From Candidatus Woesebacteria bacterium (GTDB taxonomy: Bacteria; Patescibacteriota; Microgenomatia; UBA1400; UBA12108), in assembly GCA_031972135.1 (NCBI GenBank), contig DALYFH010000004.1:228-36427 (forward strand): a stretch of DNA of 36,200 bases. Direction: 5' to 3'. The position numbers and the translations under genes are program-made. Under the pieces are notes generated by a model. The model was not told where the DNA came from and searched no databases. It was given only the letters and a program-made list of their open reading frames with translations. This document shows, one piece after another, positions 3,217 to 35,857 of this stretch. Each line of letters starts with the position of its first letter. Position 1 is the stretch's first letter.

Positions 3217-5982
3217 ATGCCTGCTGTAAGATACGCGGTCGAAGCCGTGCGTGGTAATGTTGCGATTCTCTCGAACGCTCGCGATGTCTCAAGAGTAATT
3301 GGCGAGTATGCCGAGCGCGGAAACCTCGAAACTCACCTCTATTCCCTAGAGCAAATACTTGGTTTCACAGATCAAAATTTTCCGCTTCATGATGCTTGGC
3401 TAATATTTTTAAGTCCCGAGCTAGCCACGTTTTTTGTCGGCGAGGGGAGGGGAGTCTGGAGCAAGCTAACCACCTATCCACACCCACACCTCTATCTAGT
3501 CGAGCGAGCCTGGCAAAAAATCCCACTAGATGTCTCTAGTCGCGCCACCAGACTAGTAATAGGGGAGTATCTGGGACTAGATTCAGAGGGGTCAGACACA
3601 CTCAAAAAACTAGCAAATGAGATTAGTAATAATAAAAAAGTCAGCCTAGGGGAGGGTGGTTTGTCGTCCCTCCATTTGATGAGCGAAGAATATCTCCTAA
3701 ACGCACTCTCTCTGGTCCTCACTAGCCAAACCGAAGCTCCTCAGATAAACATTGGTAATTCGACTGGGGTTTCCCTGACTACTCTTTTACAGTTGTTCGG
3801 CGAGTCTAGTGGAACATCTATCCAGGTCGACTACTCAGATGCAGGGATAGTCTCCCCAGTCTCACCTAGCTTTTATCGCTCTACTCATCAGCTTCTAAGC
3901 GATCTACCCAAAGAGAGTACTCTTGACCTGGCGCTTGATTATTTAAAGGAACACAAACCCAAGAACGATCCAACTCCAAAAACTGAGCTTGTTCCAGCGC
4001 CAGTGCCAGAACCAGAGTTAGAGTTAGTAAAAGAGCCTTTGGTCACGATCCCAAAAACTCGCCTACCCAAATTGGTTCGGGCAACTGAGCCGGAGCCAGA
4101 CAAGCCAAAGTCATACAACCTAACAGGTCTTGAGTTTGTTCCCAAAACAAAGCCTCGAGCTAGAAAAAAATTAACAATGCCCGCTTTCCTTAAAAAGCGA
4201 GGGCTCAGGGTGGTCGGAAAAGGTCTACTATTTGGATTAATATTTTATCTTGGCTCTCTTGCCTTAGCTCTTGGGATCACTTGGGTCACGATCTCTAATT
4301 ATAAAAACCAATTTTACGCTGGGTCGCTAGATAATCTCAAACCCAATCCAGTAGCCAAGGCTTCGGCCAAGTATCTCTACACCAACACCGTGGCATTTGG
4401 GATGAGTGACGCCTCTCTCCTCTTGGATGCCTATCAGCAAGCGCTAAAGCTAGGGGAGACTACCGCCAACCTCTCGCTCGGCGCTCGCGATATTTCGAGC
4501 TACATTTTGACCGACACAGATCTCAATCTAGCTAGCACACTAACCAACGCGAGATTAGACATCGAGACTCTCTATCAGGAACTCTCTCTGCTTGATGGTA
4601 CGCTCCCGCCAAAAACTCCAGGTTTAATCTCTAATATGGATAACGACTATCAGAGTCTAAAAACCATGTTGCCGAGTCTCAAAAAAAACACGCTCTTAAG
4701 CAAGGGAGTAGTCAGCATCCTGCCAGACCTAATAAGTCTCAGTGATCGAACCAAATACCTAGTGTTATTTCAAAATAATATGGAGCTGCGAGGGACCGGT
4801 GGTTTTATCGGCAGCTATGGCATCATTTCTTTTGAAAAAGGTAAGCTCTACGATTTTCAGGTTTATGACGTCTATACCGCCGATGGAGCACTCAAGGGGC
4901 ACGTCGAACCCCCAGCTCCTATCAAAAATATTCTCGGCGAAGCCAAGTGGTACTTAAGAGACAGTAACTTTGACCCCGACTTCCCAACTAGCGCGCGCCG
5001 TGCCGAATGGTTCCTCAAAAAATCGATGAATCAAGATGTCTCAGGCACAATCGCAGTTAATTTAGAAACCTTAAAACTCCTCTTATCCGCACTCGGCCCA
5101 CTAGAGCTACCCGACTATAATGAGACCATAAATGCCGGCAACCTCGCCGAGCGAGCCCAGTACCACGCCGAAGTCAATTTTTTCCCGGGAAGCACTGCCA
5201 AAAAAGAATTTTTGAGCAGTGTGGCCGATGCCCTGTTTGAGAAACTAAAAACGGCGGACGCCAAATCACTCTTGAGTGTCAGCGCCGCTCTCATGAGCTC
5301 ACTCGAGAGTAGTGATACCCAGGTGAGCGTCATCAGTCCCAACTCGGAGCGGATCCTCCAGACGCTCGGGTGGAACGGTGGTATCGAGAATAAGCCCTGT
5401 CCCACGAGCCCATGCTACGACGACTATCTCTACAGTGTCGATAGCAATTTTGGTGTCAACAAAGCCAATTTTTACATCACCAAAGATATGAATTTGGATA
5501 TTAACGTCAGCAAAGATGGCGAGCCCACCCATACTCTAAACACTACCTGGAAAAATGCCGCAACTAGTAACGCCTGGCCAGCCGGCTCCTACAAAAACTA
5601 TGCGAGACTATACCTCCCGCCATCCTCAAGCCTAGTCGAGATCAAAATTGGCGAAAACACACTCCCTTCTTCTGACTACACCGTTTCCGAGGAGCACGGT
5701 CGACTAGTCGTTTCTTATCTCGTGACAGTGCCAATCAATAGTCTAACCACTAGTAAGGTCGTCTACACTAATGAGACCAAATTAAAATCTGGTTCCTTCT
5801 ATAGTCTCTATTTCCAGAGGCAATCAGGCACTAGGTCTCAGGATAAAATCACAGTTAACTACAACTTGCCACTCTATCTCAAGCCCTCCAAACTCTCACC
5901 CGAGCCCAAAGTGCTAGATTCACAAAAACTAAGTTTTGATTTCCTCAATGACACAGATCACCGCCTCTCGATTCAATTTTAG
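3217..5982 (+). CDS. DUF4012-domain envelope protein with N-terminal cytoplasmic domain, Pro-rich linker and single TM anchor
   Basis: 921 aa. TM helix GLLFGLIFYLGSLALALGITWVTI at about residue 340. The downstream LVLFQNNMELRGTGGFIGSYGIISF is the hallmark DUF4012 motif. PAPVPEPELELV forms a linker. TAAACT at 3205-3210 lies 6 nt upstream of ATG 3217. Confidence 0.75.
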   Translation: MPAVRYAVEAVRGNVAILSNARDVSRVIGEYAERGNLETHLYSLEQILGFTDQNFPLHDAWLIFLSPELATFFVGEGRGVWSKLTTYPHPHLYLVERAWQKIPLDVSSRATRLVIGEYLGLDSEGSDTLKKLANEISNNKKVSLGEGGLSSLHLMSEEYLLNALSLVLTSQTEAPQINIGNSTGVSLTTLLQLFGESSGTSIQVDYSDAGIVSPVSPSFYRSTHQLLSDLPKESTLDLALDYLKEHKPKNDPTPKTELVPAPVPEPELELVKEPLVTIPKTRLPKLVRATEPEPDKPKSYNLTGLEFVPKTKPRARKKLTMPAFLKKRGLRVVGKGLLFGLIFYLGSLALALGITWVTISNYKNQFYAGSLDNLKPNPVAKASAKYLYTNTVAFGMSDASLLLDAYQQALKLGETTANLSLGARDISSYILTDTDLNLASTLTNARLDIETLYQELSLLDGTLPPKTPGLISNMDNDYQSLKTMLPSLKKNTLLSKGVVSILPDLISLSDRTKYLVLFQNNMELRGTGGFIGSYGIISFEKGKLYDFQVYDVYTADGALKGHVEPPAPIKNILGEAKWYLRDSNFDPDFPTSARRAEWFLKKSMNQDVSGTIAVNLETLKLLLSALGPLELPDYNETINAGNLAERAQYHAEVNFFPGSTAKKEFLSSVADALFEKLKTADAKSLLSVSAALMSSLESSDTQVSVISPNSERILQTLGWNGGIENKPCPTSPCYDDYLYSVDSNFGVNKANFYITKDMNLDINVSKDGEPTHTLNTTWKNAATSNAWPAGSYKNYARLYLPPSSSLVEIKIGENTLPSSDYTVSEEHGRLVVSYLVTVPINSLTTSKVVYTNETKLKSGSFYSLYFQRQSGTRSQDKITVNYNLPLYLKPSKLSPEPKVLDSQKLSFDFLNDTDHRLSIQF

Positions 5983-9434: not shown

Positions 9435-10130
9435 ATGTCTACCTCTTTGTCGGTTAACCAGTTGCGTGCCTTTGTCGACTCAACTTCAAATCATGGCAAC
9501 CCCACGGGCATTATTCTCGATTTAGAGCAAAACTTTTCCCCCTCGCAGCGACAAACTATCGCGACCAAGCTTCACTTTACTGATACCGTCTTTGTGAACA
9601 GACTCGACTCCTTTATTGTTAGTTTCTTTAACCCTCAACAAGAAACAAAATTCGCCGGCGACGCCTTGATTAGCACTGCCTATTTTTCTAAACATGTATT
9701 AAAGCGAGATCTCTCGCTTGTCTCATGTAGGGGTGGGAATATTTCTACCTGGACAGACGACTCTGATCTAACCTGGATTGAAGCTAGTCTCAGGGGTACT
9801 CCAGGATGGCAGCATCTTGAGCTTCCAGACCCACGCGCGGTCAGGTCTATCACTCCGTCAGAAGCAGCGACCTATAAACATACCATGGTCTGGGCATGGG
9901 AAGACAAAAATCGGGGTACTATCGTCTCTCGCACCTTTCTCCTCGATTGGGGGACCCTCGAAGATCACGGTAATGGTTCTGGCTCGATGCAGCTAGCAGC
10001 CTCACTCGGCCGTCAGATTATGATTAAACAAGCTCAGGGTTCAGTGATATATGCTGCTCCCTCAGAAAATTGCAAGGCTAGGGTGGGCGGTCGAGTGGCA
10101 ATCGACCAAATAGTGACAATTACCGTTTAG
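9435..10130 (+). CDS. PhzF-family isomerase-like protein (compact)
   Basis: 231 aa. N-terminal AFVDSTSNHGNPTGIILD matches the PhzF F..F....GNP..V motif. The segment LHFTDTVFV sits where PhzF has L.SETAF, so Asp replaces the catalytic Glu by eye. The C-terminal GGRV strand is present. Confidence 0.5.
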   Translation: MSTSLSVNQLRAFVDSTSNHGNPTGIILDLEQNFSPSQRQTIATKLHFTDTVFVNRLDSFIVSFFNPQQETKFAGDALISTAYFSKHVLKRDLSLVSCRGGNISTWTDDSDLTWIEASLRGTPGWQHLELPDPRAVRSITPSEAATYKHTMVWAWEDKNRGTIVSRTFLLDWGTLEDHGNGSGSMQLAASLGRQIMIKQAQGSVIYAAPSENCKARVGGRVAIDQIVTITV

Positions 10131-10911
10131 TAGTTCCTTCTGCCATTCCCCACAACACCTCAAAAACTTGTCTTAGCATCTGTGCATATTCTGGGCTCAC
10201 GATTTCGATTCCGACCAGGTCATTTTTGTTATACCCAGAAAACTGCACGACATCGTCAACAATATGAATGTCCTGTGTGATATTAACCAAAGACTTAGAT
10301 ATTTCACGATGCTTATAGTGGTTTTTTAAGTATTTCAAGTTATCTGTCCACAAGCTGTCAGTGCTCGTGGTGTTAGAAAGCTCTCGCACTTGTAAATTTT
10401 TCTTCACTATTCTATGTCGTACATCTTCCGCAAATTCTCTCGAAAGAGACTTGTCCCACTGGTTTGAGTCAAATATAAGAATTTCACCAGATTTAGCCTG
10501 AGTAGTTTTTAGTTCTAAATGTTGTAATCCACGTATGCCTCGATAGAACTTAGTGCTTACTTCTAACGGTTTGGCTAGGTTAATAATCTCGAAATGCTCT
10601 TTCAGATTCGGAAGCATATTTCGCATCTCACTCGCTTGTCGCTCTTTCTCCAAGGCTAGATTTTCAAAATGATCGACCGATGAGGCAGAGTAATACGTAG
10701 TTTTGTCATCCAACTTCTGTTCCACCAATCCCTTCGCCAACAAGCTCTCAAGAATTCTGTACAGTGTGGTCCTTTTTATTGGACATTTCCTAGAAATCTG
10801 CAAAGCTGTCAACCAACCAAAGTTGATCAGTATTAAATATACCCCTACTTCTTTCTCACTCAGGCCAAAAGTAATTAAGATTTTATTTATTTCAGTATTG
10901 TCCACCATCAT
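10120..10911 (-). CDS. TrmB-family transcriptional regulator (paralog 1)
   Basis: N-terminal winged HTH FGLSEKEVGVYLILINFGWLTALQISRKCPIKRTTLYRILESLLAKGLV, a coiled linker, and a C-terminal domain shared with the 3 paralogs (FYRGIRGL ... VFEVLWGMAE). The ORF track starts at a TTG (10920). I prefer ATG 10911, which has TAAAAT 8 nt upstream. Confidence 0.7.
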   Translation of the reverse strand: MMVDNTEINKILITFGLSEKEVGVYLILINFGWLTALQISRKCPIKRTTLYRILESLLAKGLVEQKLDDKTTYYSASSVDHFENLALEKERQASEMRNMLPNLKEHFEIINLAKPLEVSTKFYRGIRGLQHLELKTTQAKSGEILIFDSNQWDKSLSREFAEDVRHRIVKKNLQVRELSNTTSTDSLWTDNLKYLKNHYKHREISKSLVNITQDIHIVDDVVQFSGYNKNDLVGIEIVSPEYAQMLRQVFEVLWGMAEGTTKR

Positions 10912-10917
10912 GGACAA
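10898..10917. promoter_or_regulatory. Candidate operator: inverted repeat TTGTCCA-N6-TGGACAA over the start codon of TrmB paralog 1
   Basis: Perfect 7-bp arms (10898-10904 and 10911-10917). The repeat spans the ATG ATG of the minus-strand regulator gene, inside a 48-bp divergent region. Confidence 0.3.
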
Positions 10918-10959
10918 CAATTTTACAACAGTTATTTGGTGTCGTAAAGTCTGCTCACT

Positions 10960-11904
10960 ATGAAAATAGTTATATTAACACCACGTGACGAGTACACAAA
11001 AACTCAGCAAGAAACACTCTCTACAATGGGGGAGGTTGTCTATACAGACAGTCGACGCGCATATTCGTTACAAGAACTATTAGATCTTACTAGGAATACA
11101 GATCTATTCGCTATAGACCCCGACAATCTTGGTGGATTTGAGCATTCTCCAGAAATAATCATTAAAATCCTCGCGCAAAACACCTCTATCAAGCATTTGG
11201 CTTTGAGCACCACCTCCTACGGCTACGTGAGTAAACAGTACTGTCAAAGTAGAGGAATTCAAGTGACAAACATCCCTCACTACTCCACTCAGTCGGTTGC
11301 AGAGTTGGCAATTTCTATGTTGCTAGGGTGCTCCAAACACATATTTTTAACAGATCGTGAGACTCAAAAAAACAATTATCAGCTCCACATGGGTCAGGAA
11401 GTTGGAGGTAAAACAATAGGAATAATCGGATTAGGTAGTATTGGCCAATGTACGGCTAAGCTGGCCCAGGGTTTGGGAATGAAAGTGATCGGCTGGAATA
11501 GGACGCAAAGAAGAGTAAGCGGAGTAAAAAACGTACCCCTCGACACATTGCTAAAACAATCAGATTTTATCTCGCTCCATCTCTCTGATGCTCCAGAAAC
11601 CGTCAACTTTATCAGTAAAACTCAGTTGTCTCAGTGTAAAAAAGGGGCAATCTTTACCAACGTATCAAGTAGAGATCTAGTTGATGAGGCTGAAATGGCT
11701 AAGGCTCTCAAATCAGGTCAAATAGCTAGCTATATATTCGAAGCCGAAGACTTTACCAATTCACCATTATTAGGTCTCACAAACGCCTTAATGTTTAAGG
11801 GTTTTGGTTGGTATACCAAAGAAGCTCTCGATCGCAACAAGAAGATCTGGGTGAAAAATATCATTTCATTAGTAAAAGGAAATCCGATAAACCAAGTCTA
11901 TTAA
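10960..11904 (+). CDS. D-isomer-specific 2-hydroxyacid dehydrogenase-family protein (catalytic His apparently missing)
   Basis: 314 aa. NAD-binding GKTIGIIGLGSIGQCTAKLAQGLGMKVIGWNR. The Arg/Glu region NVSSRDLVDEAEMAKAL is present. The usual N.(I/L)(L/I)TPH(I/L) segment reads NALMFKGFGWYTKEA. Confidence 0.75.
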   Translation: MKIVILTPRDEYTKTQQETLSTMGEVVYTDSRRAYSLQELLDLTRNTDLFAIDPDNLGGFEHSPEIIIKILAQNTSIKHLALSTTSYGYVSKQYCQSRGIQVTNIPHYSTQSVAELAISMLLGCSKHIFLTDRETQKNNYQLHMGQEVGGKTIGIIGLGSIGQCTAKLAQGLGMKVIGWNRTQRRVSGVKNVPLDTLLKQSDFISLHLSDAPETVNFISKTQLSQCKKGAIFTNVSSRDLVDEAEMAKALKSGQIASYIFEAEDFTNSPLLGLTNALMFKGFGWYTKEALDRNKKIWVKNIISLVKGNPINQVY

Positions 11905-11985: not shown

Positions 11986-12792
11986 CTAAGTCTTTCTCTC
12001 AAACCCCCTATATTTCTCCGGCAATTTAGAATTCTCCGCCAGGTTCCATAGTGTATTCCAGATACTCCGCTGTGTCTCTGCCATTTTCTCATTCTCTATC
12101 TCCACTCCAAACACATCGTTGTTCTCCCAGTAATAAATGGCGACCACATTGTTATAAATATCCAGGTTGTGCGAAAGCTTCATGACCGAGTCGGGTAGAT
12201 ATCTCCAGCCACTTTTGTTTATATGGATACGCTCAAATCCAGGCGCGTCCATACTCTTCAGAAACTCGTCACTACGCAAGTCCTTGGTGACTATCCCATT
12301 CTTTTCTATCTGAGTAACCCATTGTTTAAAGAACGCGACCCCCGCGACCTCTTCCATATTCCGGTAGGTATATCCTAGGATCTCTCCCTTCGCTTTTGTC
12401 TCATTCCACATGATCTGCTTGATCCCTGCAATTCCTCGGTAGTATCTGACCTGTGTCGACTTGATCTCTGGCAGTTGCGAGATCTCTTTCTCAAACTCGG
12501 GAAAATTTTCTTCAAGCTCTTTTACTCTGCGCTTTTCTTGCTCGACCATCAGCTTTACTTGCTCTGGCTCTGCGGCCCGTATCCGCCTAGATTTATGCTC
12601 TAGAACCTCTTCAATTAATCCTCGCTCTGCGAGTGTCTCTATTTGCCTATAAAGTGCCGTCCGCTCTATTCCCGTGGCTCTACTGGCCTCTAGGATAGTC
12701 AGAGGACCTTTTGCCACGAGCACCCCAAACAGTCGCACTGCCTCTTCATCAAACCCCAATTTACTCAAATAATCCTCAATAGTTTTACTCAT
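11986..12792 (-). CDS. TrmB-family transcriptional regulator (paralog 2)
   Basis: wHTH LGFDEEAVRLFGVLVAKGPLTILEASRATGIERTALYRQIETLAERGLI. Shared C-terminal motifs YYRGIAGI and IWNTLWNLAE. TATAAT (12801-12806, minus strand) lies 8 nt upstream of the ATG. Confidence 0.75.
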   Translation of the reverse strand: MSKTIEDYLSKLGFDEEAVRLFGVLVAKGPLTILEASRATGIERTALYRQIETLAERGLIEEVLEHKSRRIRAAEPEQVKLMVEQEKRRVKELEENFPEFEKEISQLPEIKSTQVRYYRGIAGIKQIMWNETKAKGEILGYTYRNMEEVAGVAFFKQWVTQIEKNGIVTKDLRSDEFLKSMDAPGFERIHINKSGWRYLPDSVMKLSHNLDIYNNVVAIYYWENNDVFGVEIENEKMAETQRSIWNTLWNLAENSKLPEKYRGFERKT

Positions 12793-16042: not shown

Positions 16043-16093
16043 AACTCCTCCTTTTTCTTGCATTCTGTCACAAACCTGCTAATATTCAATCTG

Positions 16094-16903
16094 ATGTCCG
16101 AAAAAACAGACACTATCATTTCTCTCCTCACCCAGTTTGGAGTGAGTGAGGTAGAAGCCAAAATATACCTGGAGATTTTATCGGGAAAGGCAGATACCGC
16201 TCTCTCGATTTCTCGCAATATTAAACTAGCAAGAACAAAGGTGTATAGATTATTAGACAATTTGCTAGTTAAAAAATTAATCGTGACCATGGTAGGGGAG
16301 CGGGGAATGCGCTTTGTCGCCTCGCCTCCCGACCAGCTCGACTTCCTCCTTTTAGATTGTGAGCACGAACTAGAGAAGCTCCGCCACACTCTCCCTACGC
16401 TCCAATCCGAATTATCGGGCTTAAGTGGAGTATCTCCCAAGTCACAAGTTCTCTACTATCATGGTGAGGATGGTCTCAAACAAGTCACGTACAACTCTTT
16501 AAAAGCAAAAGGAGAACTCCTTACCTACGAACTCTCAACTATGAATGCTTTTATGGATCAGGTAGAAGCCGAGAAACTAAGACAGCGATTTGTTAACAAC
16601 AAAATCAAGATCCGCACTCTTACCAATGCTAATAAAGTAGAGCCATATACCAATGTCACCGATCTTGTAGAAAAATATTGGGACATCCGGCACCTCAATC
16701 CCAAGGACAAACCCTTCCAGTTTGAGATCCTCATCTACAACGACGTTTATTGTATGTATAAATACTCGGGGAATGACATTTTTTGTGTCGAGATACACTC
16801 ACAAGAACTCGCCGATATGCAGCGCCAGCTTTTTGAATATCTATGGTCTGGAGCCAAAAAATTCAAAATCCTAGACTCTCAAGGAACTGCTGAGCTAGGA
16901 TGA
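16094..16903 (+). CDS. TrmB-family transcriptional regulator (paralog 3)
   Basis: wHTH FGVSEVEAKIYLEILSGKADTALSISRNIKLARTKVYRLLDNLLVKKLI. Shared motifs YYHGEDGL and LFEYLWSGAK. I moved the start to ATG 16094, which has TGcTAATAT 8 nt upstream and avoids overlapping the divergent gene. Confidence 0.7.
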   Translation: MSEKTDTIISLLTQFGVSEVEAKIYLEILSGKADTALSISRNIKLARTKVYRLLDNLLVKKLIVTMVGERGMRFVASPPDQLDFLLLDCEHELEKLRHTLPTLQSELSGLSGVSPKSQVLYYHGEDGLKQVTYNSLKAKGELLTYELSTMNAFMDQVEAEKLRQRFVNNKIKIRTLTNANKVEPYTNVTDLVEKYWDIRHLNPKDKPFQFEILIYNDVYCMYKYSGNDIFCVEIHSQELADMQRQLFEYLWSGAKKFKILDSQGTAELG

Positions 16904-18939: not shown

Positions 18940-19038
18940 TTATTCTCCTTAGTTGCTCGTATCCTACCCCCCTGCTATACTAAGTGTCAAAAGTGACGAT
19001 CACTGTCGTCAGTAAATAACAGTAGGGGAGTGAAGAGT

Positions 19039-19917
19039 ATGGATTATGAGCAAAGAACGATCGATGTCTTAAAAAAATTTGGTTTGTCAGACAATGAAGC
19101 CATTGTTTATCAAAAGGCAATCGAACTCGGCGAAACTTCGCCGTTCAAAATCGCCAAAGCGACCGGGATCGCTCGTACCACAGTCTACGCCGTCTTAACC
19201 GATCTAGCTCTCAAGGGCTTGGTCGAACTAGAGAGTGCAACGGGTCTAATGAAGCAACAAACTAAGGTAATAGCCAAAAACCCCAGTGTCCTTAGAGAGA
19301 TTATTCACGCCAAACAAAAATCACTCAGCGCTCAAGAGGTTGATATTGTCGAGATTCTCCCTTGGCTAAAAAAAGAATATCTCAAAGGCGAGGCAGATTC
19401 TGACTTTCAGTTTTTCCCAGGTATGGAGGGTGCCAACTACGTCATGTTTGACTATGACGGTGTCGGTGAGGACTCCTATGTTTTTGACTACCAAGTCCCG
19501 ATGGATGCGACCGGCGGGAAAGAAATGAACAAAGGGGTTGATCGGGGAATCAGGAAGCGTGTGGGAGGGACGGGGATTGAGTACAATCTGACCCCAATGA
19601 CCGATTGGACCAAACATGTCCTCAGTTACCAGGTCGAGCGCAATCCCCACTACCTAGACCGCGCCCAGTTTCGCTATCTCCCATTTGAGATGCAAAACTT
19701 TAACGTCATGGTCCGACTCAAGGGTGATCGTGTCTGGATAGTCTCAGTTAAAGATAAGGAGGTCTGGGGCATCAAAATCAGAAGCAGCAATCTCGCAAGC
19801 TCTCTGATCTCTCTCCACCAAGCACTCTGGAAGATGGCAAGTCCCGTTACCAAAGACATGATCGAATCCTGGATGCCCAATCCCTATCTCCGAGCAGAAA
19901 AAGCTAAAGATCGCTAA
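19039..19917 (+). CDS. TrmB-family transcriptional regulator (paralog 4, most divergent)
   Basis: wHTH FGLSDNEAIVYQKAIELGETSPFKIAKATGIARTTVYAVLTDLALKGLV. C-terminal LHQALWKMA. The track start is GTG 19030. ATG 19039 is preceded by an AGGGGAG Shine-Dalgarno. Confidence 0.65.
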   Translation: MDYEQRTIDVLKKFGLSDNEAIVYQKAIELGETSPFKIAKATGIARTTVYAVLTDLALKGLVELESATGLMKQQTKVIAKNPSVLREIIHAKQKSLSAQEVDIVEILPWLKKEYLKGEADSDFQFFPGMEGANYVMFDYDGVGEDSYVFDYQVPMDATGGKEMNKGVDRGIRKRVGGTGIEYNLTPMTDWTKHVLSYQVERNPHYLDRAQFRYLPFEMQNFNVMVRLKGDRVWIVSVKDKEVWGIKIRSSNLASSLISLHQALWKMASPVTKDMIESWMPNPYLRAEKAKDR

Positions 19918-29034: not shown

Positions 29035-29505
29035 ATGCAATACAGTATTAAGTCATTTACACCCAGAGCGTCTCAATTGCGAAGTGGTGGCAATAAGCTG
29101 GTCCTAGCCACTGGTTTTTTTGATCTTTTGCACCAGGAACACATCAATTTTTTAAGAGCTGCCAAATCATCAGGGGACATATTAATAGTTGCTGTAGAGT
29201 CAGACGAGCGCGCGAGAGCTCTAAAGGGGGAGGGTAGACCAATCGAGACTCAGTCCATCCGCCTAGATCACTTAACTCCCTACGCCGACCACTTAATAGC
29301 GCTTGATCAGACTTTTAACAACCCAGCTGCATTTGAGAGTTTGATCGAGGCAGTTCTCCCTAGTGTCTTAGCTGTCAGTAGTCACACCGCCCATCAAGAC
29401 AAAAAAGCAGCACTAGTTAGTAAATATGGTGGCATCCTCAAAGTAGTCCACACTCACAATTCCAGCATCTCAACGTCAAAAATAATAATGAAAAACCAAG
29501 TATAA
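29035..29505 (+). CDS. Cytidylyl/adenylyltransferase-family protein (RfaE-II/TagD-like)
   Basis: 156 aa. ATGFFDLLHQEHINFLRAAK corresponds to the G.FD.(L/F)H.GH nucleotide-binding motif, here HQEH. The motif IVAVESDE is also family-like. Confidence 0.7.
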   Translation: MQYSIKSFTPRASQLRSGGNKLVLATGFFDLLHQEHINFLRAAKSSGDILIVAVESDERARALKGEGRPIETQSIRLDHLTPYADHLIALDQTFNNPAAFESLIEAVLPSVLAVSSHTAHQDKKAALVSKYGGILKVVHTHNSSISTSKIIMKNQV

Positions 29506-29512
29506 TCACATA

Positions 29513-30304
29513 ATGTTCGAAACATACATCTATACCCCATTTTTTAATATCTTAGTCGGGCTATATGCCCTCCTAGGCGCTATCTCACCTGACCTTGCTG
29601 ACATGGGGATTGCAGTCATCATCTTTTCTATCATCGTCCGCATCCTCACATTCCCTCTAACAATCGCAGGGGAGCGGAGTGAAGAAGAAAAGCTAAAAAT
29701 TATTGAGAAAATCGAAGAAGTTAAAAAACTCTACGCCCACGAGCCTATCCGTCAAAAAGAAGCTATTCGAGTAGTAATGCGCAGTAATATCAGAACAGTC
29801 CTCGCAACTACTACCAACATTTTGATCCAGCTCGGTATCATACTTATGCTTTATCGCATTTTTGCTACGGGTCTCGAGGGGAAGGACTTTCATCTCCTTT
29901 ACGACTTTATGCCACACCCTGACTCGATTAATCTACTCTTTTTGGGCAAGTATGATCTCAGTCACACGAACGCTTATCTCAATCTTGTTCAGTCGATCAT
30001 GATCTTTGTGGTCGAGGTCCTTATCGCCATGCGCAACCCTCTACCTGTCTCGCGCAAAGACAAGATCCTACTCCAGGTAGTACTCCCGATCGGTAGCTAC
30101 ATTATCTTTATGTTCCTCCCCTCAGGCAAAAAACTTTTTGTTATTACTTCACTCGCCATTTCTGCTCTCTACAACGCTTTTCGCCTAGCCCAGGACTGGG
30201 GCAACAAGCTTATGACTAGGCTCACGCCTAAACAACCTGAAGAGCAGCTTCCAGCTCCACCCTCTGAACCTACCCCACCAACCGCGCAAACACACACGAC
30301 ATGA
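29513..30304 (+). CDS. yidC: Membrane protein insertase YidC/Oxa1 (short Gram-positive-like form)
   Basis: 263 aa. MGIAVIIFSIIVRILTFPLTI (TM1/amphipathic core), a Lys/Glu-rich coiled loop, further TMs, and a Pro-rich C-tail. Confidence 0.8.
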   Translation: MFETYIYTPFFNILVGLYALLGAISPDLADMGIAVIIFSIIVRILTFPLTIAGERSEEEKLKIIEKIEEVKKLYAHEPIRQKEAIRVVMRSNIRTVLATTTNILIQLGIILMLYRIFATGLEGKDFHLLYDFMPHPDSINLLFLGKYDLSHTNAYLNLVQSIMIFVVEVLIAMRNPLPVSRKDKILLQVVLPIGSYIIFMFLPSGKKLFVITSLAISALYNAFRLAQDWGNKLMTRLTPKQPEEQLPAPPSEPTPPTAQTHTT

Positions 30305-30316
30305 TACAATTTGCTT

Positions 30317-30868
30317 ATGTTTGACAATCTTGTAGTGTCATTTTTGGCTGACGAGGTCGTAGGTGGCTTCTTTATCTCCGTTCCACCAGGTCACGTCGCC
30401 TGTCTCTATGATCGTGGACGTGGTGTACTCAAGCAGGTCTATGGTCCCGGACTTCATATTAAGATCCCTTTTTGGCAGATCGCCAAACTCTTTAATGCGC
30501 AAGTTCTCGAATATACCATCCACAAAGGTTTTGATTTAAGCAACAAAGAAAAGCTAGGAGATGAGCCCATCAAAACTAGCACCAAAGATGGCAAAGAGGT
30601 AATAGTTGAGGGGAGTATTTTATTCCGTATCGACAAGCAAAACGCCCCTGAACTCTGGGAAAATATAGGGGAGAGTTTTGTTAGCAAAGTGATCCGTCCG
30701 TTTAGTCGCAGCAAAATCTCCTCCGTCTTTACAACTGTAGACGCGGTCAACATCAAAACCTCGCGCGCCGACCTAGAGTCACGCCTCAAAACCGAACTCA
30801 ATACAGAGTTCCAAAACCGCGGTCTCATTTGTGAGGGAGTTTTGCTCTCTGAGATGAGCGTAGGGTAA
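30317..30868 (+). CDS. SPFH/Band-7 (prohibitin-like) domain protein, minimal
   Basis: About 183 aa. VPPGHVACLYDRGRGVLKQVYGPGLHIKIPFWQ is the canonical SPFH N-terminal strand pair. It lacks a clear TM and the C-terminal coiled coil. ATG 30317 is preferred (TGaTACAAT 6 nt upstream) over TTG 30311. Confidence 0.65.
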   Translation: MFDNLVVSFLADEVVGGFFISVPPGHVACLYDRGRGVLKQVYGPGLHIKIPFWQIAKLFNAQVLEYTIHKGFDLSNKEKLGDEPIKTSTKDGKEVIVEGSILFRIDKQNAPELWENIGESFVSKVIRPFSRSKISSVFTTVDAVNIKTSRADLESRLKTELNTEFQNRGLICEGVLLSEMSVG

Positions 30869-30879
30869 ACTAATAAGGT

Positions 30880-31998
30880 ATGTCCCGACAAAAAATCTCC
30901 GAATTTGTAGCTAAGACTACTCTCTATCCCATTTTTGATCTCAAATTCCATGGTCTTGCTGCGACAGTTAGCACTACAGCAGCAGAGATAAAAAAACATT
31001 TTGGTGACAGCAATCTAGTACTCAAGGTCGATCAGGGGATCAAAAAAAGAGGCAAGCTAGGCTTAGTAAAAATTAATATCTCACCCTCAGATATTCCTAC
31101 AATAATCACCGAATGGGTCAAACAAGGTTGGACCAATTTTTTAGTCGAGCCAGTTTATGAACACGATAGCTCAGCTGAGAGCTACTTATCACTCTCCCGT
31201 ACGCGCTATGGTTGGGATATTAAATATAGTAAGAGTGGTGGGATCGAAATCGAATCTCACTGGGACAGCATCACAGACAAACTCCCAACTAGACTAGAGG
31301 AGTTTATCCATAATGTGTTAATCCCCAAACTAGATCTTCATCACATCGCCTTTTTAGAGATGAATCCGATAGTGCTTAGAGCGGACAAAATCATTCCACT
31401 CGACATGGCAGTAGAGGTAGACACTAGCGCCTCCTCCCTCCCCACTCTCCCCGACAGAGCACTTTCTGATTCAGAGCGGATAATTTCTGAACTAGATCAC
31501 AGTACTCCGGCTAGTCTTAAGTTTCATCTGATTAATCCTAGTGGCAGTATCTGGATGCTCCTTTCAGGTGGAGGTGCTAGCCTAGTCCTCGCGGATGAGG
31601 TAGCCGATCTAGGTCTAGGGGGTGAGCTCGCCAACTATGGCGAGTACAGTGGGGCACCTACTGACGACGATGTCTATGCCTACACTAAGACTATTCTAGG
31701 AGATCTCTTATTACTCAAAAATAATAATCCAAAAGCAATTATTGTTGCCGGGGGAGTAGCCAACTTTACCGACGTCAAAAAAACCTTTCAGGGTTTAATC
31801 CGAGCACTAGATGAGCAAAGTCTCTCTCTTCAAAAATCTGGTGTCAAAGTCTTTGTTCGTCGGGGAGGCCCCAACGAAGAAGCAGGACTCAAACTCATGC
31901 GTGGTTTTTTGACTAGTAAAAACCTTCTCGGCTGTGTTTATGGACACGACACCCCACTCACTCAGGTGGTATCCGAAGTTAGAAAGTATTTCTTATGA
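30880..31998 (+). CDS. ccsA: ATP-citrate lyase beta / citryl-CoA synthetase large subunit (ATP-grasp + citrate-binding)
   Basis: 372 aa. ACLY/AclB-type strings LVLKVDQGIKKRGKLGLV, FLVEPV, LEMNPIV, ASLKFHLINPSGSIWMLLSGGGASLV, ELANYGEYSGAP, IIVAGGVANFTDV, VFVRRGGPNEEAGL. Confidence 0.9.
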   Translation: MSRQKISEFVAKTTLYPIFDLKFHGLAATVSTTAAEIKKHFGDSNLVLKVDQGIKKRGKLGLVKINISPSDIPTIITEWVKQGWTNFLVEPVYEHDSSAESYLSLSRTRYGWDIKYSKSGGIEIESHWDSITDKLPTRLEEFIHNVLIPKLDLHHIAFLEMNPIVLRADKIIPLDMAVEVDTSASSLPTLPDRALSDSERIISELDHSTPASLKFHLINPSGSIWMLLSGGGASLVLADEVADLGLGGELANYGEYSGAPTDDDVYAYTKTILGDLLLLKNNNPKAIIVAGGVANFTDVKKTFQGLIRALDEQSLSLQKSGVKVFVRRGGPNEEAGLKLMRGFLTSKNLLGCVYGHDTPLTQVVSEVRKYFL

Positions 31999-32990
31999 TA
32001 AATATTCACCAAATTCGTACAGGCGACAACATGATCTTGGTTCTAGGTAATCACGAGGGGATTATCCAGAGCATCCTCGACTTTGACTACTTATCAGGCA
32101 AAAGTGAGGGTAGTATTCTAGGGATAGTCACTGGTCGCCCTGGTTTTGCTAAGTATTTCTGGGGCAGGGCAGAGGTATTGATTCCCACACTTACTTCAAT
32201 TTCTAATTTCGAAATTCGAAATTTGAATTTTAACCTCTGGCTCCTCAACCTCCTCTCTGGTCGCCGCACTCTATCTAATACAGAAGACTTTCTCCGACTT
32301 TTCCCACACGCATCCGGTGCTGCACTATTTGCCGAAAATGTTCCCGAACTCCACGCTCAACAACTAATTAACACTAATCACGGATTCACGGACCTGCCTG
32401 CGCAGGCAGGTTCACGGATTCACGACAATTCTAAGTTAGTCGTCGGCCCCTCTTCCGTTGGCTTGCTTATCCCGGGCATTCTAAAACTTGGACCAATCGG
32501 TGGGGTTACTCCAGATCAAATTAACGAATCAGATTTGACTCATGGTGGGAGTGTTGCCGTCTTGTCTGCTAGCGGCGGCATGACCAATGAGCTAATAAAT
32601 ATTGCAGTCCAAGCAGGCCATAGACTTAGTTTTGCCCTGAGTTTTGGGGGGGATCGCTTCCCTGTTTTATCACCACGTGATGCTTTTATCCTGGCCGAAG
32701 AAGATTCCGAGACCAAAACAGTTCTATATTACGGCGAACTAGGTGGCGATGACGAATACGAACTGGTCAAACTAAAAGAAGAGGGCAAATTTACCAAACA
32801 AGTCATTGCTCATATCGCTGGTACAGTCAGTAGTCTCTTTGCCGAAGCCCCTCAGTTTGGTCACGCCAAAGCCAAGGCGGATAAAGATAGAGTCACAGCC
32901 AAAGCCAAGCGTGAGGCGTTATTAAAAGCAGGATTTAAGGTTAGTAATTCATTCTCCGAGTTCATCAAGCTCGCAACTGAGCTAAAATAG
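31995..32990 (+). CDS. ccsB: Citryl-CoA synthetase small subunit / N-terminal (CoA-binding, phosphohistidine) half of ATP-citrate lyase alpha
   Basis: 331 aa. SILDFDY, VVGPSSVG, VAVLSASGGMTNEL, FGGDRFP, YYGELGG and the phospho-His loop PQFGHAKAKA followed by AKREALLKAGFKV, which parallels ACLY FGHAGACA...KNQALKEAGV. ATGA overlap with ccsA. An alternative start is ATG 32031. Confidence 0.88.
   Translation: MINIHQIRTGDNMILVLGNHEGIIQSILDFDYLSGKSEGSILGIVTGRPGFAKYFWGRAEVLIPTLTSISNFEIRNLNFNLWLLNLLSGRRTLSNTEDFLRLFPHASGAALFAENVPELHAQQLINTNHGFTDLPAQAGSRIHDNSKLVVGPSSVGLLIPGILKLGPIGGVTPDQINESDLTHGGSVAVLSASGGMTNELINIAVQAGHRLSFALSFGGDRFPVLSPRDAFILAEEDSETKTVLYYGELGGDDEYELVKLKEEGKFTKQVIAHIAGTVSSLFAEAPQFGHAKAKADKDRVTAKAKREALLKAGFKVSNSFSEFIKLATELK
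32378..32424 (+). repeat. Perfect 20-bp palindrome ACCTGCCTGCGCAGGCAGGT flanked by 13-bp direct repeats TCACGGATTCACG, in frame inside ccsB
   Basis: Direct repeat copies at 32378-32390 and 32412-32424. Palindrome at 32392-32411. Each direct repeat is itself a near-tandem of TCACGGA. The element encodes HGFTDLPAQAGSRIHD. Confidence 0.9.
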
Positions 32991-32994
32991 ATTT

Positions 32995-33783
32995 ATGGAC
33001 AACTTAAACAACCGCACTCATTCTTTATTTACCACAACCATTAGTGGCGACATGGGTGGCGAGCCCACAATCCTAGGCCAAAATCTAACAGACGTTGCTA
33101 CCTCACATTCTCTATCTTGGATAGTGGGTAGTCTCTGGCTCGGTCGAGAGCTAAAGTCAAAAAAGACTGAAGAAGCGATTGATCTCGCACTTCGATTGTT
33201 GGTAGATCATGGTCCGTATGTTTCAGGTGCGGTCAACACCATGATCACAGCACGCGCAGGACGTGACCTAGTTAGTTCTCTGGTTGCTGGACTCCTGACT
33301 ATTGGCCCTCGTTTTGGTGGTGCTGTAAACGGCGCCGCCAAGGTTTGGTTTGAATCTCAGGGGGTCGACCCACAAATGCTCGTCGAAGATTTTGCTAAGC
33401 GCAAAGAGTATATTCCTGGCATCGGTCATCGCAAATACAGACTCGATGCTCCAGATCCTCGAGTTTCGCTCTTAACAGATCTTATTCAAGATATCCCTCA
33501 TCCTCACTTAGATTTTGCTCGTGCAGTCGAAAAATTAACTACAGCCAAAAAGCCAAATTTAATCTTAAACGTAGATGGCACACTGGCAGCAGTCATGCTT
33601 GATTTACTCAGTCACGAAGAACACTTAACCAAAGAAGAGTTGGCCACACTAATAGATAGTGAATTTTTTAATGCCATCTTTGTTCTCTCCCGCTCAGTCG
33701 GCCTCATTGGCCACTATCTTGACCAAAAACGCTTAGGTGAACCCCTTTTCCGTCTACCCGACAAAGATGTCTTCACTGCTTAA
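32995..33783 (+). CDS. ccl: Citryl-CoA lyase / citrate-synthase-homology C-terminal module of ATP-citrate lyase
   Basis: 262 aa. VDHGPYVSGAVNTMITARAGRDLVSSL, GIGHRKYRLDAPDPRV, KKPNLILNVDG, LSRSVGLIGHYLDQKRL. All closely parallel the ACLY C-terminal domain. Confidence 0.88.
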   Translation: MDNLNNRTHSLFTTTISGDMGGEPTILGQNLTDVATSHSLSWIVGSLWLGRELKSKKTEEAIDLALRLLVDHGPYVSGAVNTMITARAGRDLVSSLVAGLLTIGPRFGGAVNGAAKVWFESQGVDPQMLVEDFAKRKEYIPGIGHRKYRLDAPDPRVSLLTDLIQDIPHPHLDFARAVEKLTTAKKPNLILNVDGTLAAVMLDLLSHEEHLTKEELATLIDSEFFNAIFVLSRSVGLIGHYLDQKRLGEPLFRLPDKDVFTA

Positions 33784-33808: not shown

Positions 33809-33838
33809 TTGACACTCCCATCTCCCGTTTGCTAACAT
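33809..33838 (+). promoter_or_regulatory. Sigma-70-type promoter of groES-groEL
   Basis: TTGACA (33809-33814), an 18-nt spacer, then TAACAT (33833-33838). GGAGG Shine-Dalgarno at 33889-33893 before ATG 33899. Confidence 0.5.
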
Positions 33839-33898: not shown

Positions 33899-34201
33899 AT
33901 GCTGTTAGATCCTAAGAAATTAAACCCAATGCCCGGTTATGTCCTCGTAGAACCAACCGAAAAAACTACTCAGACCGCAGGTGGGATATATCTCCCAGAT
34001 AGTCATGATGAAAAACCTCAGGCTGGCAACGTTATCGCAGTCGGTGACTCTGTTTGGGAGAGTGGTGTAAAAGAAGTTAAGAGTCCAGTCAAAGTCGGAG
34101 ACAGGGTAGTCTATAAAAAATGGGGTGGCAATGATGTCAAGATCAACGATACCGAATACCAATTCTTAAAATTTGAAGATATCTTAGCAACGATTAAATA
34201 A
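33899..34201 (+). CDS. groES: Co-chaperonin GroES
   Basis: 100 aa. GYVLVEP, AGGIYLPDS, mobile-loop region, GDRVVYKKWGG. Confidence 0.95.
   Translation: MLLDPKKLNPMPGYVLVEPTEKTTQTAGGIYLPDSHDEKPQAGNVIAVGDSVWESGVKEVKSPVKVGDRVVYKKWGGNDVKINDTEYQFLKFEDILATIK

Positions 34202-35857
<1,656 letters not shown>

Follow-up and report, generated by a model that had tools for sequence, protein, structure and literature searches.

Three adjacent genes of a Candidatus Woesebacteria genome likely encode an AclB/AclA-type ATP-citrate lyase with a split aclA

The window analysed here is a 36,200-nucleotide stretch of a Candidatus Woesebacteria contig (DALYFH010000004.1), and its subject is a run of three genes whose products are termed P1, P2 and P3 (Table 1). 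These genes likely encode a complete ATP-citrate lyase (ACL) of the AclB/AclA, or ACLY-like, type, in which aclA was secondarily split at the linker between the CoA-binding/phosphohistidine (CoA/His) module and the citrate-synthase-homology (CSH) module, and in which the subunits would reassemble and carry out ordinary ACL chemistry, cleaving citrate to acetyl-CoA and oxaloacetate. The genome belongs to the candidate phyla radiation (CPR), and the assignment is carried by family membership, the retention of catalytic residues, and the position of the split proteins among fused relatives.

Family and gene layout of the three proteins

A sequence-only reading of the window had described three co-directional open reading frames (ORFs) with an ATGA overlap and a 4-nt gap, and both the ORF list and direct reading of the DNA place all of these where that reading had put them. 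The stop codon of P1 and the start codon of P2 share ATGA at 31995-31998, and the P3 gene lies in a different frame from the P2 gene, the two start codons being 1000 nt apart. The motif strings quoted for P1 were found as VDQGIKKRGKLGLV (residues 50-63), ASLKFHLINPSGSIWMLLSGGGASLV (211-236), ELANYGEYSGAP (249-260) and VFVRRGGPNEEAGL (324-337), and those quoted for P3 as VDHGPYVSGA (70-79), GIGHRKYR (142-149), KKPNLILNVDG (185-195) and GHYLDQKRL (239-247). FGHAKAKA, which P2 was said to end in, is present but occupies residues 288-295 of 331, near the C-terminus and not at the end of the protein.

Table 1. Features of the window, with positions counted from its first nucleotide
Feature	Coordinates	Strand	Length	Evidence or remark
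P1, AclB-type subunit with ATP-grasp and ACL-specific citrate-binding domain	30880..31998	+	372 aa	Pfam, solved structures, AlphaFold model
P2, N-terminal AclA half with CoA-binding and phosphohistidine module	31995..32990	+	331 aa	Pfam Ligase_CoA, ACLY/AclA alignment
P3, C-terminal AclA half with CSH (citryl-CoA-lyase-like) module	32995..33783	+	262 aa	ACLY CSH match
Fission junction, spacer TAG-ATTT-ATG	32991..32994	+	4 nt	Read from sequence
Upstream context (not enzyme): cytidylyltransferase-like, YidC and SPFH/Band7 genes	29035..30868	+		Gaps of 7, 6 and 11 nt; synteny
Promoter-like site	33809-33838	+		Just upstream of groES
groES	33899-34201	+		Conserved downstream neighbour of the ACL genes
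groEL	34214-35857	+		Conserved downstream neighbour of the ACL genes

The claim that every ACL module is distributed over the three genes held up, since Pfam domains were found on each protein far beyond chance: Citrate_bind (E-value 1.4e-57) and the ATP-citrate synthase ATP-grasp domain (4.5e-27) on P1, Ligase_CoA (2e-10) on P2, and the C-terminal domain of Citrate_synt (8.8e-22) on P3. P1 exceeded the Pfam cut-offs for PF24948 (95 bits; cut-off 83) and PF16114 (195 bits; cut-off 26.8), and P3, with its 262 aa, covers only positions 148-353 of the 357-position Pfam citrate synthase model, full-length citrate synthases being approximately 370-430 aa long.

The three proteins were searched against all solved structures, and NCBIfam models were judged by their curated cut-offs. 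In the structure search, human ACLY and Methanothrix concilii ACL ranked at the top for P1, P2 and P3, with 197, 143 and 205 bits respectively, and Chlorobium ACL ranked second, with 139, 81 and 144 bits, whereas the citryl-CoA synthetase (CCS) large subunit, CCS small subunit and citryl-CoA lyase (CCL) of Hydrogenobacter (6hxq_B, 6hxq_A and 6hxp_A) reached 41, 60 and 67 bits. The best matches of P1 were Methanothrix ACL 6hxi_A (197 bits) and human ACLY (192 bits); residues 15-324 of P2 aligned with residues 500-794 of human ACLY (143 bits) and 16-311 of Methanothrix AclA (140 bits); and P3 matched the CSH module of human ACLY (6hxk_A; 205 bits) and residues 352-606 of Methanothrix AclA (199 bits). 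The NCBIfam models for SucC (43 bits; cut-off 375) and SucD (84 bits; cut-off 336) both fell far short, all citrate synthase models remained below 60 bits against cut-offs of 330-590, and the best citryl-CoA lyase model gave 76 bits against a cut-off of 212. Furthermore, the AlphaFold model of P1 (pLDDT 88.6) had a TM-score of up to 0.84 to ACLY, compared to 0.71 for CCS and approximately 0.7 for the beta subunit of succinyl-CoA synthetase (SCS). Because of the difference in bit score between ACL and CCS/CCL, together with the missed NCBIfam cut-offs, P1, P2 and P3 are not CCS/CCL, SCS or citrate synthase; all three are of the AclB/AclA-ACLY lineage. These scores and the ACLY-like P1 model bear out the close likeness to fused ACL and ACLY that the sequence-only reading had noted by eye, and no best placement fell in SCS or citrate synthase; the CCS/CCL label in the title of that reading is unsupported as a family.

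The residues needed for the reaction were compared next to their ACLY counterparts, with the ACLY numbering for P1 taken from the structure-search alignments. The P1 equivalents of the ATP and Mg ligands, K49, R57, E160, N162 and D175, are invariant in 119 of 119 homologues, and four of them (K49, R57, N162 and D175) correspond to ACLY K58, R66, N203 and D216. The citrate-site residues G258, N295, F296, T297 and R328, corresponding to ACLY G309, N346, F347, T348 and R379, are equally invariant (119/119). His290 of P2 (codon 32862-32864) is the predicted equivalent of ACLY H760, the catalytic phosphohistidine, and Glu114 (codon 32334-32336) is the equivalent of E599; both residues are found in P2 and in each of the five relatives compared (L001, L002, L003, L006 and L008, the L and P numbers used here denoting related loci and homologous proteins), and the P2 N-terminus, FGHAKAK and FAE(N/G)VPE are conserved in L001-L008. 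P3 carries H72, H145, R146, D194 and R233 where ACLY has H900, H975, R976, D1026 and R1065, and across the CSH homologues the equivalents of H975, D1026 and R1065 are conserved in 119 of 119 and that of H900 in 117 of 119, while the R976 position holds Arg or Lys. The roles of H900, R976, D1026, R1065, E599, H760 and F347 in ACLY have been described (PMC10115795). In comparison with the closest relative, dN/dS was 0.10 for P1, 0.12 for P2 and 0.06 for P3, values that place each of the genes under strong purifying selection.

P1 is short (372 aa versus approximately 400-425 aa) because the variable helical insert of the ATP-grasp domain, before the FLEMNP strand, is reduced. A defective ATP-grasp domain was considered and rejected: the losses are confined to this insert, and the model is confident and ACLY-like. 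The exact 331-aa sequence of P2 is absent from a collection of 15 billion proteins that holds P1 and P3, and the source annotation may use another P2 start codon or flag P2 as a pseudogene or aclA fragment; the N-terminal pattern MI.I..IR, conserved in relatives, supports the start at 31995.

On this assignment, P1, P2 and P3 would reassemble non-covalently around a CSH tetramer core bearing the AclB and N-terminal AclA modules. ATP held in the ATP-grasp domain would phosphorylate His290 of P2, and the phosphoryl group would be passed from His290 to citrate on the AclB subunit, giving citryl phosphate. Attack by CoA would then yield citryl-CoA, and the CSH subunit would assist in splitting it into acetyl-CoA and oxaloacetate.

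Two observations were made among the AclA homologues. P0266, P0271, P0288 and P0301 have Trp at conserved Gly positions (e.g., WIGHK and AEWIPE), which suggests that their source organisms read UGA as Gly (code 25, Gracilibacteria or Absconditabacteria) and that an incorrect table was used in translation; ACL would in that case occur there too. P0250 (1003 aa) consists of two tandem AclA-like units, and the CSH part of the first unit lacks some conserved residues (e.g., GIGCP for GIGHR).

Split and fused aclA and the competing explanations

In the window, the CoA/His and CSH modules are not on one AclA chain of approximately 600 aa. The three-gene layout was also found in L001-L008 and L010 by ORF analysis and in L019 and L020 as called genes, and the order P1-P2-P3 is kept in every complete related locus; in L011-L015, from Levyibacteriota, Saccharibacteria and other Patescibacteria, aclB is instead accompanied by a fused aclA, a single ORF of 595-621 aa. 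The stand-alone CSH family is large, as the best 120 homologue clusters are all 262-277 aa long and 73-100% identical to P3, and CSH proteins of the P3 type are 50-60% identical to their fused CPR counterparts. Outside the split clade, the full-length relatives returned by an exhaustive search of 1.84 billion representatives are AclA-like (approximately 600 aa) or single-chain (approximately 1000-1160 aa). P0256 (267 aa) was considered as a second stand-alone CSH protein and rejected: its frame in L017 is open to the contig end with C-terminal sequence of the N-terminal AclA half upstream, and it is thus a fragment of a fused gene.

Trees were built from the CSH module alone, from 584 concatenated AclA columns and from AclB. 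The split sequences fall inside a CPR ACL clade together with the fused CPR forms, with bootstrap support for that clade of 200/200 (AclA), 199/200 (AclB) and 171/200 (CSH alone), and the CPR clade is itself nested among fused AclA and single-chain ACLY. Fused CPR AclA proteins have a linker of approximately 15-20 aa between '...EFV.LI' and 'MD.L.NR.H.LFT'. The split clade is without this linker and has a stop and restart at that site, so that the break lies exactly between the modules, and the start Met of P3 aligns with an internal Met of the fused L011 protein. Because the split clade is nested in fused CPR AclA and the break is at the linker, the three-gene state is read as a derived fission and not as a relic from before the fusion. 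The earlier reading had left open a state just before the AclA fusion or after its fission; the former part does not stand, and the latter does. The spacer between the P2 and P3 genes varies among relatives from an 8-nt overlap through gaps of 4 to 90 nt to approximately 1 kb with an inserted ORF.

The inserts themselves were recorded. At L005:4997-5926, the CoA/His and CSH genes are parted by a 309-aa ORF that gave no Pfam match, and at L019:10825-11456, on a 0.96-Mb contig, a 79-aa protein and a PIN-domain toxin form a pair between the CSH gene and groES. The ACL gene block is tolerant of insertions.

Several points weigh against a split but otherwise ordinary ACL. The phosphohistidine loop of P2 reads GHAKA and not the near-universal GHAGA, and the complex between P2 and the CSH subunit is one that we infer. 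The trees are neighbor-joining only (200 bootstraps), and monophyly of the split clade received moderate support, at 133/200 in the concatenated AclA tree, 111/200 in the CSH tree and 48/200 in the AclB tree. In addition, no citrate transporter, citrate source or downstream enzyme was recognised in the window or beside the ACL genes of its relatives. The altered loop, GHAKA(K/M/L)A (32859-32879, residues 289-295 of P2), in which Lys replaces Gly two residues after the catalytic His, is shared by nearly the whole CPR ACL clade (L001-L015), P0258 being an exception; it is not tied to the fission, because fused CPR members carry it too. The weak monophyly is mostly due to the instability of L010, and the number of fissions is therefore uncertain: at least one, possibly two. 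The phylogenetic check places the proteins inside fused AclA/ACLY and not with CCS/CCL, with moderate support for the split group itself.

That the three genes preserve an ancestral CCS(large), CCS(small) and CCL layout older than the AclA fusion is highly improbable. The modules are indeed divided over three polypeptides as in CcsA, CcsB and Ccl of Hydrogenobacter, and a preprint places CPR sequences among CCS/CCL homologues; however, all three proteins are 2-5 times nearer to ACL than to CCS/CCL in bit score, the split clade lies within CPR lineages with fused aclA and those within fused AclA/ACLY (CPR clade 200/200), and the break removes the linker only, leaving the P3 start at a Met that is internal in a fused relative. 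Even less credible is an artefact, be it a frameshift introduced by sequencing or assembly, a decayed gene, or programmed frameshifting that yields one AclA. The P2 and P3 genes adjoin each other in different frames, and the missing database entry for P2 might reflect another gene call or a pseudogene flag, but the split recurs in at least 12 independent assemblies besides the window (L001-L010, L019 and L020) with differing junctions, the 120 best P3 homologue clusters are uniformly of stand-alone length, and dN/dS is approximately 0.1 for all three genes. As the junctions vary among relatives, neither a sequencing error nor a conserved slippery site for programmed frameshifting is at work.

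Two further explanations accept the fission and differ in what the enzyme does. One is that the system reverted to two steps, in a convergent return to the Hydrogenobacter mode: P1 and P2 would together form a free citryl-CoA synthetase, P3 would be a citryl-CoA lyase acting independently of them, and citryl-CoA would diffuse between the two enzymes with no stable complex. A CSH module on its own gene, CSH and P2 genes that are 90 nt to approximately 1 kb apart in some relatives, in one case with an inserted ORF, and the example of Hydrogenobacter, which proves such a system workable (PDB 6hxq and 6hxp), all fit this idea. On the other hand, a passage of PMC10115795 describes CoA in ACLY at the ASH-CSH interface, and the residues reported to touch CoA in the CSH site (PMC10115795), among them H900, R976 and R1065, are retained here; the strict gene order, mostly tight packing and high conservation of P3 (73-97% identity) would fit an obligate partner as well. 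Neither the contacts nor the gene arrangement is decisive, and we regard the reversion as improbable. Slightly less improbable, though still unlikely, is that the same enzyme runs mainly in reverse, forming citrate, CoA and ATP from acetyl-CoA, oxaloacetate, ADP and Pi and thereby adding to the substrate-level phosphorylation of a fermentative CPR cell. ACL can catalyse its reaction in both directions, and Desulfobacter postgatei is said, after work by Moller et al. in 1987, to run ACL in the citrate-forming direction. No oxaloacetate source or citrate sink is visible in the window or the flanks of relatives, however, and the rest of the tricarboxylic acid (TCA) cycle is generally missing from CPR genomes (PMC7143001). 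A split AclB/AclA-type ACL that cleaves citrate remains the likely reading of the three genes.

Genomic setting and possible role

A scan for related loci, limited to one genome per species, returned 16 loci, of which the closest is from a Candidatus Woesebacteria metagenome-assembled genome (MAG) whose GroEL, YidC and P3 are 97%, 96% and 90% identical to those of the window. The block cytidylyltransferase-YidC-Band7-P1-P2-P3-GroES-GroEL is syntenic in L001-L008, and the same synteny is found on the 964,590-bp JGI contig Ga0376277_0000019. Because the synteny recurs, on this long contig among others, mis-binning and assembly chimerism are excluded. The host is not an autotroph using the reductive TCA (rTCA) cycle, and the suggestion of a reduced, CPR-like genome agrees with the synteny shared with MAGs of Woesebacteria (Microgenomates) and with the 0.96-Mb contig. 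The remainder of the window is typical of CPR, with DUF4012, four TrmB regulators, MFS and EamA transporters, LeuRS, VanW, YidC, Band7 and GroES/EL, and as had been noted from the sequence it holds no further TCA-cycle gene. Scans of the window for tRNA genes and Rfam families found nothing.

No gap between the six genes at 29035-33783 exceeds 11 nt, and the upstream genes and the ACL genes probably form one transcription unit. In loci of the Woesebacteria type, the neighbors of the ACL genes are housekeeping genes, and those of the fused type have mixed neighbors, including MurB, a PGM/PMM-family mutase, an NAD-epimerase, a metallo-beta-lactamase-fold protein, EF-G and SIMPL. Malate dehydrogenase, phosphoenolpyruvate carboxykinase and pyruvate:ferredoxin oxidoreductase were not seen beside the ACL genes, whether of the window or of related loci. 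Since no metabolic partner adjoins the ACL genes, no pathway could be built, and the direction and role of the enzyme are a matter of conjecture. The likeliest role in a genome of approximately 1 Mb without a TCA cycle would be the conversion of imported or host-supplied citrate to acetyl-CoA and oxaloacetate. More tentatively, CPR bacteria of the Woesebacteria type might possess a natural three-subunit ACL with a dissociable CSH protein, and this enzyme, fed by host citrate, could be the chief or sole entry to acetyl-CoA and oxaloacetate in these episymbiont genomes of approximately 1 Mb; this broader proposal is doubtful, if less so than the reverse direction considered above.

Other features of the window lie apart from the ACL genes. 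Four TrmB-family regulators are encoded within 10 kb, at 10120-10920 (-), 11986-12792 (-), 16058-16903 (+) and 19030-19917 (+), with EamA and MFS transporter genes as well as one for a D-2-hydroxyacid dehydrogenase (10960-11904) lying among them. A 921-aa DUF4012 protein (3217-5982, +), typical of CPR cell-envelope loci, adjoins a small RNase H/RVT_3-like protein (2459-2911, +), and genes resembling those for O-antigen ligase and polysaccharide flippase are found upstream at 3-2448. Most genes are on the + strand, yet GC skew is negative over nearly the entire window and positive only at groES/groEL, with a cumulative minimum near 33-34 kb; a published Microgenomates genome has likewise been noted for its unusual strand composition (PMC7143001).

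Clusters of three genes for citrate cleavage are usually read as ancestral CCS/CCL, and the case described here indicates that the AclA fusion is reversible. Consequently, gene architecture alone cannot serve for calling CCS/CCL, polarising rTCA cycle evolution or annotating metagenomes. A stand-alone CSH subunit from the ACLY lineage also offers a natural handle on the role of this module in ACLY, which is a drug target. That role is disputed between two structural models (PMC10115795), and if the subunits can be mixed in vitro, they would provide a natural system to decide whether CSH is catalytic or only allosteric in ACL and ACLY. Moreover, ACL is selectively kept in a housekeeping block (yidC ... 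groESL) in genomes of approximately 1 Mb without a TCA cycle. This suggests that citrate, acetyl-CoA or oxaloacetate plays a central part, so far unrecognised, in the physiology of CPR bacteria and in their dependence on hosts.

Comparison with known systems

The closest characterised counterparts are AclB/AclA of Methanothrix (Methanosaeta) concilii (PDB 6hxi and 6znw) and eukaryotic ACLY, which gave the highest sequence scores and the best structural match. The order of domains is the same (ATP-grasp, citrate-binding, CoA-binding, phosphohistidine, CSH), and the catalytic and ligand residues are all kept. In contrast to these enzymes, the aclA of the window is cut at the ASH-CSH linker with loss of that linker, the loop has GHAKA where they have GHAGA, the ATP-grasp domain has a shorter helical insert, and the host is a CPR genome of approximately 1 Mb without an rTCA cycle.

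The fused ACLs of other CPR bacteria (Levyibacteriota L011 and L012, Saccharibacteria L015, Patescibacteria L013 and L014, and Dojkabacteria P0253) share the 200/200 clade, the GHAKA loop and the gene order with the window; they have a single aclA ORF of 595-621 aa with a linker of approximately 15-20 aa, whereas the clade of the window has a stop and restart there. ACL genes of CPR bacteria have received only brief mention so far: enrichment of aclAB has been described in Saccharimonadia MAGs (PMC12577380), the preprint cited above groups CPR sequences with CCS/CCL, and no description of a split aclA in CPR, or of a break inside aclA, was found in the literature searched.

CcsA/CcsB and Ccl of Hydrogenobacter thermophilus (PDB 6hxq and 6hxp) are likewise three polypeptides with the modules parted alike, and the overall reaction is presumably the same, but they are distant in sequence (41, 60 and 67 bits, compared to 197, 143 and 205 bits for ACL). 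The likeness to this architecture is convergent, because fission of a fused ACL produced the three-gene state in the window.

Fusions and fissions of ACLA/ACLB in eukaryotes are documented, according to a passage of PMC11976288 that cites Gawryluk, Eme and Roger (2015). Both the eukaryotic genes and those of the window show a labile gene architecture. The eukaryotic events treated by Gawryluk, Eme and Roger in 2015 reportedly occurred at the AclB/AclA boundary, whereas the break in the window lies inside AclA, where it parts the synthetase-like from the lyase-like module, and in bacteria.

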